A stretch of DNA of 64,000 nt, taken from IMG/VR virus record IMGVR_UViG_3300025519_000001, positions 1-64,000 of that record. One strand, written 5' to 3'. The notes beneath the pieces were generated by a model, which searched no databases, had not been told where the DNA came from, and saw only the letters and a list, made by a program, of their open reading frames with translations. Shown in pieces: positions 11,688 through 53,956 of this stretch; positions within the stretch are counted from its first letter, which is position 1, and each line of letters starts with the position of its first letter. Origin of the DNA: a virus. Made by a program: the position numbers and the translations under genes.

Positions 11688-13451
11688 GTATATGAAACAA
11701 CGATTTCATGGATATTTCAAAAATAACAGACAAAAGGTGTTATTATGAATGACAAAGAATTGTTTGAAGTAGTGAATAAGGCACTCTTTCAAAATAAATC
11801 ATGTTCTTTTGACACATGGTATACTATCATTGTAAATAACAAACCAATATTTGAGGCTGCAATTAACAGCAAAGGATATATACATATTCGAAAACCCATC
11901 AAAAAAGTTGATTGGTACGAAAATCGAAATGATGTATTTCTTTATCGAAAATGGCGATTTAACAGCAAAAAGGAATTAGTTGATGCTGGAATGATCGAAG
12001 GAACAAAACCGAATAAAGAAGATATTAAGGAGGTTATTTTATGACGCTGGAACAGTTTTTTGATTTGCCTATTGACACGCAAGAGCAATGCGATGAATGG
12101 CTTAGACTTTATCGTAAGTGGTATAAAGCACAAACTAAAAGAACGAAAAGGAGTCGATAACAATTGAAAAGACTTGCAGAAAACTTGAGAAGCCGATAAA
12201 AGCAGGATTTGATTAGAATAAAAATAATAATAGGATGGTGTTAAAAATGAAAAATTATGATAGCAGAGAGCAAATTGCGTATGATGAAGCCGCAATAATA
12301 GCAAGTGAAATTATGTACCAAAATAATGTCTATACAAAGAATAGGATAATCGACAGCGTAAGATTCGGAGATTATGAAAACCTTCAGTGTATTGTATTCA
12401 GGTGAGAAAAGGAAAGTCACAACGTAGAAATTTATCATAATGGCGAAGAGATTAAATATGTTGGAACTGGTTACAGTATGTATTAGTCGATGAAAGAATG
12501 ATTTTATAAGGAGTGATAAAAAATGACAGCAAGGAGAAAGATTGCTAACAAAATTTATGAGTTGGGAAATGGCGATACTTTTGATTTTCATTTTAAAACT
12601 GAGGATGGAACGACAATTTATGCGGCTGCTACGTGCATGAGGATTCATGACCTTAATAGGGTTATTGTGTCGGCGTATGGTAGAAATGAGTACGACAGAA
12701 TTATTAGTGAATTTGATACTGTGGCTGATATTGAGAAAAAGCTTGATTTTATTTGCGAATAACAGCGAATACAAAAGGCAAGAAATTTTATATATAAAAG
12801 GTGAGATAAAAGTAGCAGTATTCTTTGAAAAAATTAGCCCTAAAGTTTTGGAAGCAGCGAAAAAATTGGAAATGGAAGGTTATATTCGTATCAACAAGTT
12901 TGAACATGGTGAAAACTGGATGCAGATTGCAGATGAAGTTATTGATGAAGTTGCTTTGCTAAACGAATATAAAATTGAAGTTAAATGGTTTGATGGTTCG
13001 TGTGCGATTAGAAAGAGTAAATAAAAGATTATTTCACAAGAACAATAACAGCAGGAGGTATACATATGTTCAAGGTGACTACAATCGAATGGTGGAATGG
13101 TCATATAACAGTCGCAGAGTACCATTTCGACAATGTGCTGCATATGTACAAATTCATTCATCTGTGCGAACAAGACGGAATTAAGTATAAAGTTGTAAGA
13201 GTTAAAAATAATAATCAACAGAAAGGAGCATGACAGTTGGTCGGAATCCTTTTGTTAATTCTTTCAACTATTGCTGGTCTGCTGTTTGTTTTACTTATCA
13301 TCTTTGCGGTATTAAGAATTAAAACAACTATGAAAATAAAACAAATTAGGAATAAAATACTTGCTATAGAAGTTGATCGTAATGTTTTGCTACAGCAAAT
13401 TAAGCAGATTGAACAGGAAAGCCTATAAATAGTATCTTTGATCGGCATATT

Positions 13452-13573
13452 AAGTTGTAAAAAAGTTATAAGCAAGTTACCAGCAAGCTAAAAAACCGCA
13501 TAACAGTAAGGTTTCTTTATAATTTAGGGGCGGTTTTGCAAGTTAAATGCAAGTTAGAAATAAGTTATAAGTT
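13452..13573 (+). repeat. 11-bp-phased AAGTT direct-repeat array around an inverted repeat (iteron/centromere/att-like site)
   Basis: AAGTT or AAGCT at 13452, 13463, 13474, 13485, 13540, 13551, 13562, all in one 11-bp register; central AAAACCGC...GCGGTTTT. Confidence 0.7.
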
Positions 13574-14010
13574 AGAATCAAATGTCCATTTCGAGGAGAG
13601 TTGATAGTATGAAACTGAACAGGGATGATATCTATGTAGCAACATTTGTTCATTGTTTAGATGAAGCTGATATAATTCAACAGACCACCAGCGGACGCAA
13701 GTTCTATCGTTTAAAAAATTTTCTAGGTGATCTAGGTTATATTGTTAAGTCTGTAGAGTTAATCAATTAATTGTTTCGTGGGGTGCGAATAATGAATAAA
13801 AAGATTTCATATAAAGAAGCAATTGAACGAATTCAAAGGTTAAAATATACGTTTATAGGGAATCGTGATCAACTTCATGAGGAAATTGATCGTATTATTG
13901 TTATGACTAAAAAAGAATGAAAGCAAGGATAAGATGAAATGAAGAAGGACAATATTTATGAGAAATGTAGTAGGTGTTTTTAAAATAAAAAAATAAAATA
14001 TGTAAAACTA

Positions 14011-14053: not shown

Positions 14054-14135
14054 GGGGAGCGAGGCGTCCGGTAGACGCCGACGGTCTTATACACCGTGAA
14101 TAACGAGCTTGGTTCGACTCCAAGGCTCCCTACCA
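14054..14135 (+). tRNA. tRNA-Ile(UAU)
   Basis: Cloverleaf: acceptor GGGGAGC/GCTCCCT, anticodon arm ACGGT-CTTATAC-ACCGT, T loop TTCGACT, encoded CCA; 10-nt variable region. Confidence 0.85.
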
Positions 14136-14136
14136 T

Positions 14137-14213
14137 ATCCCCTTAGTTCAATTGGATAGAACAACAGCCTTCTAAGCTGTAGGTTAGAGGTTCAATTCCT
14201 CTAGGGGATGCCA
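14137..14213 (+). tRNA. tRNA-Arg(UCU)
   Basis: Acceptor ATCCCCT/AGGGGAT, anticodon arm ACAGC-CTTCTAA-GCTGT, CCA. Confidence 0.95.
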
Positions 14214-14214
14214 T

Positions 14215-14300
14215 GCGGATATGATGGAATTGGCAGACATATCGGACTTAAAATCCGAGGTCATTGAGACGTGAGGGTTCAAATCCCTCTATCCGCACCA
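14215..14300 (+). tRNA. tRNA-Leu(UAA)
   Basis: Anticodon arm TCGGA-CTTAAAA-TCCGA, long variable arm, CCA. Confidence 0.95.
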
Positions 14301-14301
14301 T

Positions 14302-14377
14302 GAGCCATTAGCTCAGTTGGTAGAGCACCTGACTTTTAATCAGGGTGTCGAAGGTTCGAGTCCTTCATGGCTCACCA
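14302..14377 (+). tRNA. tRNA-Lys(UUU)
   Basis: Canonical Bacillales-type tRNA-Lys, anticodon arm CCTGA-CTTTTAA-TCAGG, CCA. Confidence 0.97.
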
Positions 14378-14412: not shown

Positions 14413-14723
14413 GTGTATATGCGCAAATGTAGTCGAAATATAGTCGATTAAATCTTAAAATAATAGTACAATAAAAATAAAAAAGGAATTGGTTTCTTTT
14501 GGTTAAAATGATCACGCAATATCAATCGGATTTTAGTTCGCTTAAAACCAGAGGATGGTATGTTGTTGTCGATATGAAGGGCAAAGTTAAGGTTTATAGT
14601 TGGTTTGTTTATTTAAATTTAATTTCAAATGTTATTTTAAAAGCAGATGCGGTTTATTGGAGTGATGATCGGGAGGAGATTCACAAGGTTTTTGGTGTTT
14701 AATAAAAGAGACATTTTATGGTG

Positions 14724-14764
14724 AAAAAGATTTAAGACCACCAAACCGATTGGTGGTCTTAAAT
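14724..14764 (-). terminator. Intrinsic (probably bidirectional) terminator closing the CRISPR-like RNA
   Basis: Perfect 15-bp stem ATTTAAGACCACCAA/TTGGTGGTCTTAAAT with a U tract on the minus strand. Confidence 0.8.
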
Positions 14765-14779
14765 TAAGGAGAAAAATTC

Positions 14780-14886
14780 ATTTCAATCCACGCTATTACA
14801 GCTAATAAAAGCTGTTTCAGCGAATAAAAAAAGGGGGGGGAGAGACATTTAGAGAGTTTCAATCCACATTCTCTAGTGAGAATGAC
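14780..14886 (-). CRISPR. Type I-C-like CRISPR mini-array / solitary-repeat RNA (two divergent repeats, one 31-nt spacer), no cas genes in window
   Basis: Minus strand: GTCATTCTC-ACTA-GAGAATGTGGATTGAAAC (14886-14856) and TTCGCT...AGCGTGGATTGAAAT (14824-14780); both carry the I-C 3' handle TGGATTGAAA(C/T) directly after a hairpin. Confidence 0.75.
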
Positions 14887-14899
14887 TTTGATCAATTTA

Positions 14900-14928
14900 A
14901 TTCTAAAATATATGCTTTATTTAGTCAA
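14900..14928 (-). promoter_or_regulatory. Sigma-A promoter for the CRISPR-like RNA
   Basis: TTGACT-17-TAGAAT on the minus strand, 13 nt before the first repeat. Confidence 0.75.
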
Positions 14929-14981: not shown

Positions 14982-15395
14982 ATGGGGAGACTGTCAATTA
15001 AACAACGTATTCTAAAGACATCGGACATCAACCGTAGAAAAGAATTGGCGTTAAACTGGCATCAGGCATGGGCTGGAAAAATGAAAAGAGAATTGTCGTG
15101 GTCGATTGAGGAATTGGAAACGTTAGATTTGCAACAAATATTTTGGCGTCTAAGATTCATAAAAGCCGAAACAGAGAAACATTTTGCTGCACTTCCAAAT
15201 GTATTAGATAGTTTGGACATCTCAGGCGACAAATATAGAAATACTGCTTCTCAATTCATCAGTCTAATTGATGGTATTATGCATAAATTAAATCTAGAAA
15301 GGAATAGCCGAAACACAAAGTTGTTGCTTCAGAATGCTTATTTTGAATACAGAAATTTTTCAGACGAATTGGTGTCAGTGATCAAAAACAGATAG
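14982..15395 (+). CDS. Hypothetical protein
   Basis: 137-aa ORF with RBS AAGGTGGG, divergent from the CRISPR-like RNA. Confidence 0.7.
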   Translation: MGRLSIKQRILKTSDINRRKELALNWHQAWAGKMKRELSWSIEELETLDLQQIFWRLRFIKAETEKHFAALPNVLDSLDISGDKYRNTASQFISLIDGIMHKLNLERNSRNTKLLLQNAYFEYRNFSDELVSVIKNR

Positions 15396-15640: not shown

Positions 15641-16126
15641 TTAACCAGCGGAACTTTCGTTTTTCAGAAAACCTAATTTTCGGGCGTTGTTTAACATGTT
15701 GATCAGGTTATCTAAATCTTCACCATTAGGGATTTCTTGAATTTTTTGTTCCAATCTGACGTTTTCCCTACGGAGCTTATTGTGGTCTCTTTGTAATCGT
15801 TTATAAGCAGCGGTTGCTTCTTCAACTGCTTTCGTCAGTATTTCAAATGGATCTTCACTGTTTTCTGCGATATCAGGAATATCAAGTTTTTGATTTTTAT
15901 TTTCACGAAGCGTCCTTTTTTCTTGTTTTGCTTTTTCAAGTTCATCTTCGTATTGCTTCCTAACTTTACTATTCCAACGGAAACCACAAGCTGCTGGAGT
16001 TCTTGATAATCTTTCCGCCGCTACTTTAAATCCTTCCCCTTGTGTGCCACCGTTTCTTACGCTTTCAAGAATCGCTTCAGCAAGAATGTGGTCATTTTCT
16101 GCACTCCAACTATCTTTCCTGTTCAT
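15641..16126 (-). CDS. rsfA: RsfA/YlbO-family (Myb-like) sporulation transcriptional regulator
   Basis: MNRKDSWSAENDHILAE...GGTQ...LSRTPAACGFRWNSKVRKQY; start moved to ATG 16126 after RBS GAGGCG. Confidence 0.9.
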   Translation of the reverse strand: MNRKDSWSAENDHILAEAILESVRNGGTQGEGFKVAAERLSRTPAACGFRWNSKVRKQYEDELEKAKQEKRTLRENKNQKLDIPDIAENSEDPFEILTKAVEEATAAYKRLQRDHNKLRRENVRLEQKIQEIPNGEDLDNLINMLNNARKLGFLKNESSAG

Positions 16127-16206
16127 TCTTCTCGCCTCGTTTATCGATTTATTATATTTATATCCAAAATCTTCATTACCTATACATACAAAAAAATATA
16201 TAAAAT

Positions 16207-16220
16207 AGAACATTTGTTCC
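16207..16220. promoter_or_regulatory. LexA (SOS/Cheo) box between rsfA and mazF
   Basis: AGAAC-ATTT-GTTCC matches the Firmicutes GAAC-N4-GTTC box; 2 nt upstream of promoter TTGATA-17-TATACT (16223-16251). Confidence 0.7.
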
Positions 16221-30884: not shown

Positions 30885-32353
30885 CCCTCATGTCGGCAGA
30901 AGACCCCCACTTCTACAAGTGGGGGATGAATGACGACTAGATATTTTACCAATAATATTGACTTTTAGTAAACTAATTTGATATATTATCCATAAGGAGG
31001 TGAAAAATATGCCAAAAGGTAAAACTAAAAATATCATTTACGGTTGTCAGAAACAACAATTAAATCATCTTTCCAAAAAAGAATATATTGCATTAAAAAC
31101 AATGTGCCATTTTGCAAAGAATCTATACAATGTTGGATTATACAATGTTCGTCAATATTATTTTCAGGAACAAAAATATTTGTCCTATGAATCTAATTAT
31201 TATCTTTCTAAAGATAACGAAAATTATAAATCATTAAACAGCAATATGGCACAACAAATATTAAAAGAAGTTGACACGGTGTTCAAATCATTTTTTGGAT
31301 TAATACAAAAAGCCAAACAATCTAATTATGATTTTAGAAACATTAGTCTTCCACGTTACTTGGAAAAAGATAGTTATTTCACCTTAGTCATCGGCCAAAT
31401 TCGTATAAAACCAGACATGACTTTAGATATTCCTATGTCGCCAGCGTTCAAGAGAGAATATGGTAAAGTAACCATTAAAGTACCTGAAAATCTTCGTAAT
31501 AAAAAGATTAAAGAAATTCGTATTATTCCTAAATACAAGGCAAGGTTTTTTGAGATTCAATATACGTATGAAGCTATTGAAGTTCAAAAAGAGTTAGATC
31601 AAAATCATGTACTTGCTATTGATTTAGGATTGGATAATTTGGCTACTTGTGTTACGAATTGGGGTAAATGTTTTATTGTTGATGGTAAAAGGTTGAAATC
31701 TATTAATCAGTGGTACAACAAAGAAAATTCAAGACTACAAAGCATCAAAGATAAGCAAAAATTAAAAGGAATAACCAAGAAACAAGCGATACTTGCAATA
31801 AATCGCAATAATCAAGTTAATGACTATATTCGCAAAACTTCAAGGATTATTGTTGACTATTGTATTAAAAACAATATTGGCTCTCTTGTGATTGGATACA
31901 ATCCAACTCTGCAACAGGGTAGCAATATGGGCAAAAGAAACAATCAAAACTTTGTGAATATTCCAATTGGTCAATTAAGAGAAAATATCAAATATCTTTG
32001 TAAGATTAATGGAATTCAATACAAAGAACAAGAAGAAAGTTATACAAGCAAAGCAAGTTTCTTCGATAACGATGATCTTCCTGTTTACAATGCTGATAAT
32101 CCTCAAAAATATGAGTTTAGCGGCAAACGTATTACAAGAGGGCAATATCAAAGTAAGAGTGGTAGAATTATTAATGCTGATGTAAATGGTGCATTAAATA
32201 TTTTGCGTAAAAGTAAACTGGTGGATTTAATAATCCTACAGTGTAGCGGCGATTTGGACACGCCTTTGAGAATAAGGGTTGCTTGACCAAACTTCTCAAG
32301 AATCCCCCGCTTCTAAGTGAACGAAAGTGAGCGTAAGCGGTGGGAGGGTTCAA
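30885..32353 (+). mobile_element. IS200/IS605-family element, TnpB only; inserted after TTTAT, ends in TTCAA
   Basis: Left-end hairpin CCCCCACTT/AAGTGGGGG, right-end hairpin and TTCAA; precise excision restores the host ORF; no tnpA. Confidence 0.9.
31000..32286 (+). CDS. tnpB: TnpB (RNA-guided RuvC nuclease family)
   Basis: AIDLGLDNLA, EESYTSK and INADVNGALNI motifs; likely start ATG 31009. Confidence 0.93.
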   Translation: MKNMPKGKTKNIIYGCQKQQLNHLSKKEYIALKTMCHFAKNLYNVGLYNVRQYYFQEQKYLSYESNYYLSKDNENYKSLNSNMAQQILKEVDTVFKSFFGLIQKAKQSNYDFRNISLPRYLEKDSYFTLVIGQIRIKPDMTLDIPMSPAFKREYGKVTIKVPENLRNKKIKEIRIIPKYKARFFEIQYTYEAIEVQKELDQNHVLAIDLGLDNLATCVTNWGKCFIVDGKRLKSINQWYNKENSRLQSIKDKQKLKGITKKQAILAINRNNQVNDYIRKTSRIIVDYCIKNNIGSLVIGYNPTLQQGSNMGKRNNQNFVNIPIGQLRENIKYLCKINGIQYKEQEESYTSKASFFDNDDLPVYNADNPQKYEFSGKRITRGQYQSKSGRIINADVNGALNILRKSKLVDLIILQCSGDLDTPLRIRVA

Positions 32354-52404: not shown

Positions 52405-53956
52405 TATAGAAGGGGGGGGGATTTTTATTCAAGACGTTACAGAGTCTAAAATTAAAGATATAGCAACTGAATTACTTGTATTGGGCAGTTTGTATACCAA
52501 TCATGATTTACTTTTGGAATATGGTGAATTACTAAAAGAACAATATGATTTTTCAGAACCAACTACAAAATTTTTGTTTAACTCTATAAGCGAGTTACAT
52601 TATCAATATCCTGACACAGAAATTACAGAAACCAAAGTAAACATATACATGAATCAAGATCCAGAGCGAAAAAAGAAATATGATGCCTTAAAGGGATATT
52701 CCTACATAGAACGTATCAAAAAGCTTGTTGATTTAAATGATTTTCCTACATACTACGAAAAATTAAAAAAGTTTTCATTGTTACGTGAATATGAACGCAA
52801 AGGATTTCCTGCACAAAAAATTTACGAAAAGAATAATTTCGAAAAATTAACTTGTGAAGATATTGTTCGGGCAATGGAATACCAAGCTTCAAAAATAGGA
52901 ACTATAATTGGTGGTTTAAAAGAAAGTATTATCTTAGGTAAGAATATGGTTTCAAAAGTTGCCCAATGGAAGCAAAAACCCGATGTTGGACTATCAATAC
53001 CTTTTGAAATCATTAACATGCTTATGCGTGGTTTAAGAAACAAAAAGCTTACAATGTTCGGAATGCATTCGGGGTGTGGTAAATCAAGGACTACATCAAA
53101 GATTGCTTGTTACTTAGGCATTCTTCATCAAATTCCTGTTTGGGTAGGGGCAAACGAACAAGATGAAGATGAATGGGATGCAATGGTTATTAGTTGTGTT
53201 ATTAATAATCCCGAATTTGGATTTCAAAATGAGTTATATCGTCGAGGGTTAAATGGAATTGATGAAACTAAAATTGTAACTGGTGCTTACAATGAACTTG
53301 AAGAAGAAGTAATTTTAATGGCTGCTGAATTTATTGAGAAAAATAGCAAGATATATTTCTCTGAACTTGAATCGTTCAGCGAGAATGATATTAGACGTGA
53401 AATTAAGATTCATCAACTAAAGGGCTGTCAGCTTGCAATATACGATACAATGAAAGCCCCTGATCATGATTGGATGTCTTTTGTAAAAACAGCAGATATG
53501 TTAAAGGAAATCGCAAAGAAACTTAATATCCCTATCTGGACTACATTTCAATTAACCGATGATAGTTTGTTTAACGAATTACTTACAAGTCAAGCCATTG
53601 CAAATGGCAAACACATTAAACACGTAGCAGATCATCTTTTAATGGCACGACCGTTATTTGGAGATGAATATGATAAATATAAAATATTAAATCCAAATGG
53701 TTTTTCTGGAACTGAGCAATTAAATTTAAGACGTGATGAAACTTATTATGTTGTATTTGTTGATAAGAATCGTGGAGGAAAAGACAAGGATCGAATTTGT
53801 TTAAGAGTTGATAAAGGAAAAAATATGTGGATTGAAGAAGGTTATTTAATTCTCTCCGAGGACGAAAAGGAATTAAAAAGGATTAAACGTGAACACAAAA
53901 AATTAAAACAAGAAAAAGAGGTACGTAAACTCAAAGCGGAACTTGGGAAGGAATAG
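52397..53956 (+). CDS. DnaB-like replicative helicase (YorI-like); likely start ATT 52427
   Basis: Walker A HSGCGKSR, IYDTMK, TTFQL, DKNRGG. Confidence 0.9.
   Translation: MINIEGGGIFIQDVTESKIKDIATELLVLGSLYTNHDLLLEYGELLKEQYDFSEPTTKFLFNSISELHYQYPDTEITETKVNIYMNQDPERKKKYDALKGYSYIERIKKLVDLNDFPTYYEKLKKFSLLREYERKGFPAQKIYEKNNFEKLTCEDIVRAMEYQASKIGTIIGGLKESIILGKNMVSKVAQWKQKPDVGLSIPFEIINMLMRGLRNKKLTMFGMHSGCGKSRTTSKIACYLGILHQIPVWVGANEQDEDEWDAMVISCVINNPEFGFQNELYRRGLNGIDETKIVTGAYNELEEEVILMAAEFIEKNSKIYFSELESFSENDIRREIKIHQLKGCQLAIYDTMKAPDHDWMSFVKTADMLKEIAKKLNIPIWTTFQLTDDSLFNELLTSQAIANGKHIKHVADHLLMARPLFGDEYDKYKILNPNGFSGTEQLNLRRDETYYVVFVDKNRGGKDKDRICLRVDKGKNMWIEEGYLILSEDEKELKRIKREHKKLKQEKEVRKLKAELGKE

Follow-up and report, generated by a model that had tools for sequence, protein, structure and literature searches.

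A stand-alone phage RNA unit with two look-alikes of type I-C CRISPR repeats, a candidate tandem RNA anti-CRISPR

A 155-kb phage, putatively a phage of low-GC Gram-positive bacteria (Bacillota), carries on the minus strand (14928-14724) what appears to be a gene for a small RNA of ~170 nt containing two structural mimics of type I-C CRISPR repeats. We read this unit as a tandem RNA anti-CRISPR of the Racr type directed against a putative I-C system of the host, and give the nature of the RNA and its mode of action, taken jointly, a probability of about one half. The window analysed here (64,000 nucleotides) represents the first 64 kb of the phage genome (154,759 bp, ~33% GC; a record from a bioreactor metagenome that is 96% complete), which encodes a terminase, a portal protein and an integrase. 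Its relatives among cultured phages (Brevibacillus and Bacillus phages) are distant, with identities of at most 38% for the RecJ-like protein and at most 30% for the portal. A search with the portal protein found no relative in 185,579 species genomes, and single-protein searches with the 137-aa, 190-aa and 361-aa proteins of the phage recovered no sister phages.

The unit comprises a sigma-70 promoter, two hairpins (R1 and R2) that are each followed by the motif TGGATTGAAAY and by a spacer-like segment (S1 and S2, respectively), and a terminator with a 15-bp stem (Table 1). On re-reading, every element listed in the initial annotation was found at its place on this strand, including a promoter with 10 of 12 consensus matches, and its description of a stand-alone, Cas-less transcription unit for an I-C-like repeat RNA with its own promoter and terminator stands. 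Transcription is predicted to start near position 14893. The minimum-free-energy fold of the unit (-49.6 kcal/mol, z = -6.0) was equalled by none of 200 shuffles, and the R1, R2 and terminator hairpins were all present in both the minimum-free-energy and the centroid folds. The motif TGGATTGAAAY occurs twice in the 154,759-bp genome, on the same strand and 76 nt apart, against a chance expectation of 0.35 per 64 kb. The -10 box, the predicted start and the 5' arm of R1 are overlapped by an imperfect palindrome (14879-14904; 16-nt arms, centre TGATCA), a possible operator to which the 190-aa Myb/HTH-like product of an upstream gene might bind.

Table 1. Coordinates of the RNA unit and its parts, of neighbouring features and of variant cassettes in other phage contigs
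Feature	Position	Strand	Basis
-35 box, TTGACT	14923..14928	-	consensus scan
-10 box, TAGAAT, 17 nt from the -35 box	14900..14905	-	consensus scan
R1, I-C repeat mimic of canonical geometry	14856..14886	-	covariance model, fold
R1, 5' GT	14886-14885	-	
R1, 5' arm CATTCTC	14884-14878	-	
R1, loop ACTA	14877-14874	-	
R1, 3' arm GAGAATG	14873-14867	-	
R1, handle TGGATTGAAAC	14866-14856	-	
S1, 31-nt spacer-like linker	14825..14855	-	strain comparison, genome-wide word count
R2, I-C repeat mimic with elongated, interrupted stem	14780..14824	-	covariance model, fold
R2, outer stem CGCT/AGCG, preceded by TT	14822-14819/14794-14791	-	
R2, inner stem ACAGCT/AGCTGT, loop TTTATT	14815-14810/14803-14798	-	
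R2, handle TGGATTGAAAT	14790-14780	-	
S2, single-stranded 15-nt tail GAATTTTTCTCCTTA, from R2 handle to terminator	14765..14779	-	sequence, fold
Intrinsic terminator, hairpin 14764-14730 (15-bp stem, 5-nt loop), then CTTTTT	14724..14764	-	fold
Junction ('hinge') palindrome ATAAAA-GAGACA-TTTTAT, abutting the unit right after the terminator	14702..14719	.	palindrome scan
137-aa ORF, divergent, good RBS, confident helical fold	14982..15395	+	
Phage tRNA cluster Ile-TAT, Arg-TCT, Leu-TAA, Lys-TTT, convergent with the unit	14054..14377	+	
190-aa Myb/HTH-like protein gene, upstream of the unit	15641-16213	-	
Variant-stem I-C-like cassettes in other contigs	L026:5058-5230; L027:4766-4883; L040:1135-1363; L045:2874-3102		

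In the published description of the I-C repeat, a 7-bp stem with a loop of ~5 nt is flanked by overhangs of 2 nt (5') and 11 nt (3'), and Cas5c recognises the base of the stem, U22-G23-G24 and the 3' overhang while ignoring the loop and the 5' overhang (PMC8524198). With all 7 bp paired, R1 displays the geometry of this published Cas5c substrate (2/7/4/11), UGG lying right after a Cas5c cut predicted between 14867 and 14866. It shares with the canonical repeats of B. halodurans, S. mutans, S. pyogenes and X. oryzae (PMC8524198) the 2-nt 5' overhang, the 7-bp stem, the closing C:G pair and the 11-nt 3' overhang, composed of UGG and then AUUGAAAC, but differs from them in its tetraloop, its AT-rich stem and the absence of an array, a leader or adjacent cas genes. 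R2 keeps the 2-nt and 11-nt overhangs, the closing pairs and the handle, with a Cas5c cut predicted between 14791 and 14790; unlike the canonical repeat, its stem is split into 4 + 6 bp by a 3 x 3 internal loop (GAA versus AAT). Both stems had been drawn correctly beforehand, that of R1 as fully paired and unlike the usual GC-rich one (pairs 2 to 4 differ from the usual G/C) and that of R2 as elongated. The conserved handle UGGAUUGAAAY and the closing C:G pair are found in both R1 and R2 and are all that the two have in common, i.e. they are not near-identical repeats and do not form an array of such repeats beside I-C cas genes.

Nine canonical I-C array repeats from viral contigs unrelated to one another's source phage here, none of them from this phage, served to build a covariance model, which was searched against 246 kb (the whole phage plus other loci). 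It matched R1 over its full length (29.8 bits, E 1.1e-4 in the 246 kb) as well as R2 (19.9 bits, E 0.044 in the 246 kb), and elsewhere in the 155-kb phage it produced no site with E below 3. An Rfam scan returned no family matching the unit. When 17 repeat-like units on mobile elements were aligned to the model, 98% of the stem cells paired in this alignment, which was fitted to a model that favours pairing; compensatory changes were present in six of the seven stem pairs and the closing C:G pair was invariant in all 17 units.

Cas8c, Cas5 and Cas7 were searched for in the whole phage and are absent, so that the earlier remark that the window holds no cas genes is true for type I-C and extends to the entire genome. 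The phage does encode its own Cas12f system (at ~72.4-74.8 kb), whose 32-bp repeat is unrelated to R1 and R2. Because the phage lacks Cas5, Cas7 and Cas8c and its Cas12f repeats are unrelated, the RNA must act on a putative I-C system of the host. Use of the RNA by the Cas12f system itself was considered and rejected, both the Cas12f repeat and its anti-repeat pairing being unrelated. None of 276 I-C spacers from collected arrays matched the phage.

The segment between the two hairpins, S1 (31 nt), consists of TCTCTAAATGTCTCT followed by C8, T7 and A. The phage genome contains 40 junction palindromes, which lie between accessory genes and each have a unique 6-nt centre, and one of them abuts the unit. 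The word AGAGACATTT occurs in the whole genome only at 14707, in this palindrome, and at 14841, in S1. A split copy of the palindrome in S1 (14824-14853) shares the unique centre GAGACA with the copy at 14702-14719. The homopolymer tract that follows (14826-14840, G/A on the plus strand) reads C8T7 here, C6T8 in strain variant L076, and C6T6 in strain variant L077 and in sequencing runs X2, X3 and X6, S1 measuring 30 nt in L076 and 28 nt in L077. The unit is otherwise identical in all these variants, as are 200 nt around the tract, and S2 throughout its 15 nt and S1 over its first 15 nt are unstructured and do not vary among strains. A 43-codon ORF crossing the unit was discarded as a coding sequence; it has no RBS and is frameshifted by a -1 indel in L076.

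S1 is therefore a junction-palindrome scar joined to a hypervariable, slippage-prone C/T tract and not an acquired spacer, since its core copies the adjoining palindrome and the tract varies between strains. For this reason 'mini-array', with S1 as its 31-nt 'spacer' as the initial annotation had it, is a poor description of the unit. R2, its tail and the terminator have the appearance of a cassette with a copy of the same joint on either side, and the restriction of AGAGACATTT to 14707 and 14841, together with the shared GAGACA, suggests that R2 came in here as a cassette along with the terminator. The picture for R1 and R2 is one of two units brought together rather than of an array that acquired a spacer.

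Searches for targets of S1 and S2 bear on what the RNA might do. In the phage, neither TTC-flanked sites nor RNA complements of S1 or S2 exceeded chance as judged against shuffles, and cultured phages contained no target of either. The sequence TTC plus the first 15 nt of S1 (an exact 18-mer) was found at two sites of a 137-kb viral contig, G001 (53071-53088 and 84593-84610; loci L081 and L082), both in frame as ETFREK in two unrelated ORFs, and TTC plus the start of S1 was found once more in a 17-kb contig (L079:2871-2887). All three matches stop exactly where the C-run begins, covering only 15 of the 31 nt, and they fall in unrelated ORFs or a spacer region of contigs that are unrelated to this phage. 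Such matches would be expected if the phage borrowed Cascade and Cas3 of the host I-C system against a competing phage, with S1 as the guide, and viral mini-arrays that target other viruses are known, as presented in PMC10120712 and work cited there. We nevertheless consider this offensive use very unlikely. The three matches are within chance for an AT-rich 17-mer in the viral collection, in which unrelated AT-rich 19-mers gave six to seven chance families; by total count we judge the S1 matches in G001 and G002 to be compatible with chance and, while they are unexplained, we do not take them as a target. That two of them should share one contig by chance is odd and unlikely, but G001 holds ~24 other repeated 18-mers and no target of S2. 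As described in the work cited by PMC10120712 (Faure 2019, Medvedeva 2019), virus-borne mini-CRISPR arrays for inter-virus conflict likewise have two repeat-like units with one segment between them in a virus without matching cas genes, but their repeats are near-identical and their spacers match related viruses over the full length, whereas here the repeats differ in all but the closing pair and the handle, and the low-complexity S1 matches at most 15 nt. The initial annotation had proposed comparing the spacer with other phages, for matches next to a TTC PAM, and with host cas promoters; the former comparison thus yielded three chance-level matches in viral contigs and none in cultured phages, and in the I-C-bearing loci examined there was no site combining TTC with a seed.

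The main rival to the decoy reading is a regulatory guide of the Cracr type, which we regard as unlikely. Here, S1 and/or S2, processed by Cas5c, would steer the I-C Cascade of the host by a short PAM-proximal match to the promoter of its cas operon or of a CRISPR-guarding toxin, which would be repressed without cutting. The Cracr arrays reported from viruses, i.e. crRNA-like regulators, include nine I-C arrays with two spacers and a design of one repeat plus a terminator (Liu et al., bioRxiv 10.1101/2024.10.29.618823); regulatory mini-arrays are known from viruses as well (Shmakov et al., PMC10120712). The present unit has the layout of both, with a degenerate repeat and a short spacer-like segment occurring twice ahead of a terminator in a phage. 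Both segments are shorter than the usual 33-35 nt, and both contain the strain-invariant, unstructured stretches noted above. The Cracr class is, however, defined by a PAM-proximal match of at least 9 nt, either to CreR/CreA of the host or to the promoter of one of its cas or toxin genes, and no such match was present in the phage, in the I-C loci examined or in IMG/VR, where the handle plus the S1 seed gave no match at all and the handle plus the S2 seed gave 15 chance matches, with no true relative among them. The S1 seed, moreover, largely copies the phage's own junction palindrome, which points to an origin by recombination and not by copying of a host CreR.

S1 and S2 are also complementary to ribosome-binding sites of the GGAG type. 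This complementarity, together with the confinement of the unit to this phage lineage among the viral contigs, cultured phages and plasmids searched, would suit either a functionless, decaying relic of captured I-C repeats or a Cas-independent small RNA whose C/U-rich stretches pair with ribosome-binding sites. Both are quite unlikely in our estimate. Decay is at odds with two hairpins that are perfect despite their unrelated sequences, with two intact 11-nt handles, with a strong promoter and terminator and with the identity of three strain variants outside the homopolymer tract. As for pairing, no extended RNA target exists in the phage and the would-be seed, the C-run, is the variable part. 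The same results lend no support to the guided repression through anti-Shine-Dalgarno-like segments that had been offered as an alternative in the initial annotation, no RNA or DNA target in the phage rising above chance.

Relatives of the unit were sought through the R1 stem. Neither an array nor a solitary unit with this stem was found in 185,579 species genomes, and no CRISPR array with it was found in JGI metagenome contigs. The stem plus handle was detected four times in JGI and ENA metagenome contigs, two of the four being strain variants of this phage. A 16-mer of stem and handle gave only chance matches in viral contigs, and the whole unit had no match in cultured phages and plasmids. 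A solitary unit with the CATTCTC/GAGAATG stem and the handle (L074:6433-6464, minus strand, contig OLWA01000173.1) belongs to a temperate Bacillota phage that is not related to this one; it follows immediately on the terminator of a TIR-domain gene, upstream of terS and 1.3 kb from a tRNA-Gln gene. A further contig (L075:12420-12720, minus strand, contig Ga0247609_10003558) contains four I-C-type handles within a tRNA-Val operon, in which the CATTCTC/GAGAATG stem recurs. This contig is a fragment of a bacterial chromosome encoding HPF, FtsX, a PcsB-like peptidase and bacteriocin exporters, and the operon has a promoter of perfect consensus (TTGACA-17-TATAAT). The order is tRNA-Val, a hairpin with handle, 13 nt, a half-unit with handle and 5 nt, followed by tRNA-Val, a hairpin with CGGATTGAAAC, 15 nt, a half-unit with handle and the terminator; the 5' arm of one hairpin includes the CCA end of the tRNA. 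From this arrangement, the units would be set free by tRNA processing. The segments between them (13, 5 and 15 nt) are too short for guiding, and, the carrier being bacterial, a role other than anti-CRISPR is possible for the CATTCTC/GAGAATG sub-family.

Other phage contigs (L026, L027, L040/L045, L046 and L049) bear different I-C-like cassettes of two or three units. In L026, L027, L040 and L045 (Table 1), each unit is followed by a short tail, similar from unit to unit, and by a terminator-like hairpin, and these cassettes may be Racr or Cracr cassettes. Kinship of the large phages with I-C units (L026, L046 and L038) with the phage studied here was rejected on comparison.

The divergent 137-aa ORF next to the unit is an ORFan: it has no homologue and matches no PHROGs, Pfam, PADLOC or PDB family. 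We list it as a neighbour of the unit. No acr or aca gene was recognisable nearby, the ORFs around the unit falling into no family (no Acr library being among the collections compared). Within the tRNA cluster on the other side, the tRNA-Arg(TCT) gene (14137-14213) differs at ~18 positions from its counterparts in L076 and L077, in contrast to the near-identity of the tRNA genes on either side, a pattern that looks like an allele replacement of a single tRNA. A 1.2-kb stretch (12787-13977) is replaced in L076 and L077 by ~197 nt of other sequence, apparently a gene-content swap near the junction palindrome at 12490. Farther along, a 428-aa ORF (31000-32286) matches the transposase family phrog_506 and may mark an insertion sequence inside the early region of the phage.

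The best fit to these observations is the RNA anti-CRISPR reading, raised already in the initial annotation, in the form of a tandem decoy. It accommodates the layout, with two units of hairpin and 11-nt handle, a scar for a linker and no I-C cas genes in the phage; the selection by the covariance model of exactly R1 and R2 in 155 kb; and the existence of a solitary unit with the R1 stem in L074 and of copies with 13-, 5- and 15-nt segments in L075. There is a precedent in the Racrs, RNA anti-CRISPRs derived from solitary repeat units, of which RacrIC1 inhibits I-C interference, and non-targeting crRNAs are known to compete for Cas proteins (Camara-Wilpert et al. 2023, PMC10651486). As proposed, the RNA would be made early in infection and each unit would be bound by the host Cas5c, which would cut between G and UGG, at the base of the hairpin on its 3' side, and stay on the 11-nt handle as it does on a real crRNA. 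Two crRNA look-alikes would result, the first composed of the handle, a meaningless linker of 28-31 nt and the R2 hairpin, and the second of the handle, 15 nt and the terminator hairpin. The former would load a near-complete Cascade without a guide and the latter would let two or three Cas7 subunits assemble before stalling the process; both would divert Cas5c, Cas7c and Cas8c from phage-targeting crRNAs. Being unlike, the stems of R1 and R2 would not allow recombination between the two units, which were probably joined as separate cassettes at the junction palindrome.

Like RacrIC1 and other Racrs, the unit is a phage-borne repeat look-alike outside an array, with its own promoter, no cas genes and the same I-C handle, and the prediction for it is likewise that the Cas protein which processes crRNA would bind it and that Cascade subunits would be diverted. 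Its position also agrees with the definition of a Racr, by which a mobile element carries a repeat-like unit that lies outside arrays and has a promoter within 250 bp (PMC10651486). The described Racrs, however, closely resemble the repeat of the host, RacrIC1 being a single unit that matches a real repeat at 29 of 34 positions and is co-transcribed with acrIC5 (PMC10651486), whereas here there are two units with unlike stems that match no known array, a terminator of their own and no recognisable acr gene nearby. The handle and geometry match type I-C in general, but the R1 stem is in none of the arrays searched (185,579 species genomes and JGI metagenome contigs), nor does it occur among the I-C units in one part of the list of the Racr study (PMC10651486). 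The presence of the R1 stem on a bacterial chromosome fragment (L075) and the lack of a recognisable acr or aca gene also speak against a decoy. [quoted passage not shown]

A wider, two-sided strategy is conceivable, although we find it improbable as a whole, its parts being taken jointly. The phage may borrow spacer capture by the host I-C system for its own Cas12f array while the unit disarms I-C interference through structure-only mimics with stems found in no real array. As mobile cassettes, the mimics would be swapped at junction palindromes, and the CAUUCUC/GAGAAUG design would circulate among unrelated Bacillota phages and would have become established in a tRNA operon of a bacterium, to be released there by tRNA processing.

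The kind of element is already known, with both RacrIC1 and two-spacer I-C Cracr arrays published, and the finding opens no new category by itself. What is notable here is the retention of only those features that Cas5c reads, the cassette-like look of the units at recombination joints and the presence of a Cas12f system in the same phage. If our reading is true, a large Bacillota phage would encode an I-C RNA anti-CRISPR in which just the closing pair, a hairpin and the 11-nt handle are kept, the rest having diverged. Similarity searches of the SRUFinder type probably miss such a unit, and catalogues of solitary repeat units based on similarity would then under-count these RNAs, more of which would be found by structure-aware models such as the covariance model used here. 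Type I-C systems are used in genome editing, and the unit would offer a compact natural reagent for shutting them down. For the phage itself, it represents a second CRISPR-related module in a genome that already carries Cas12f.
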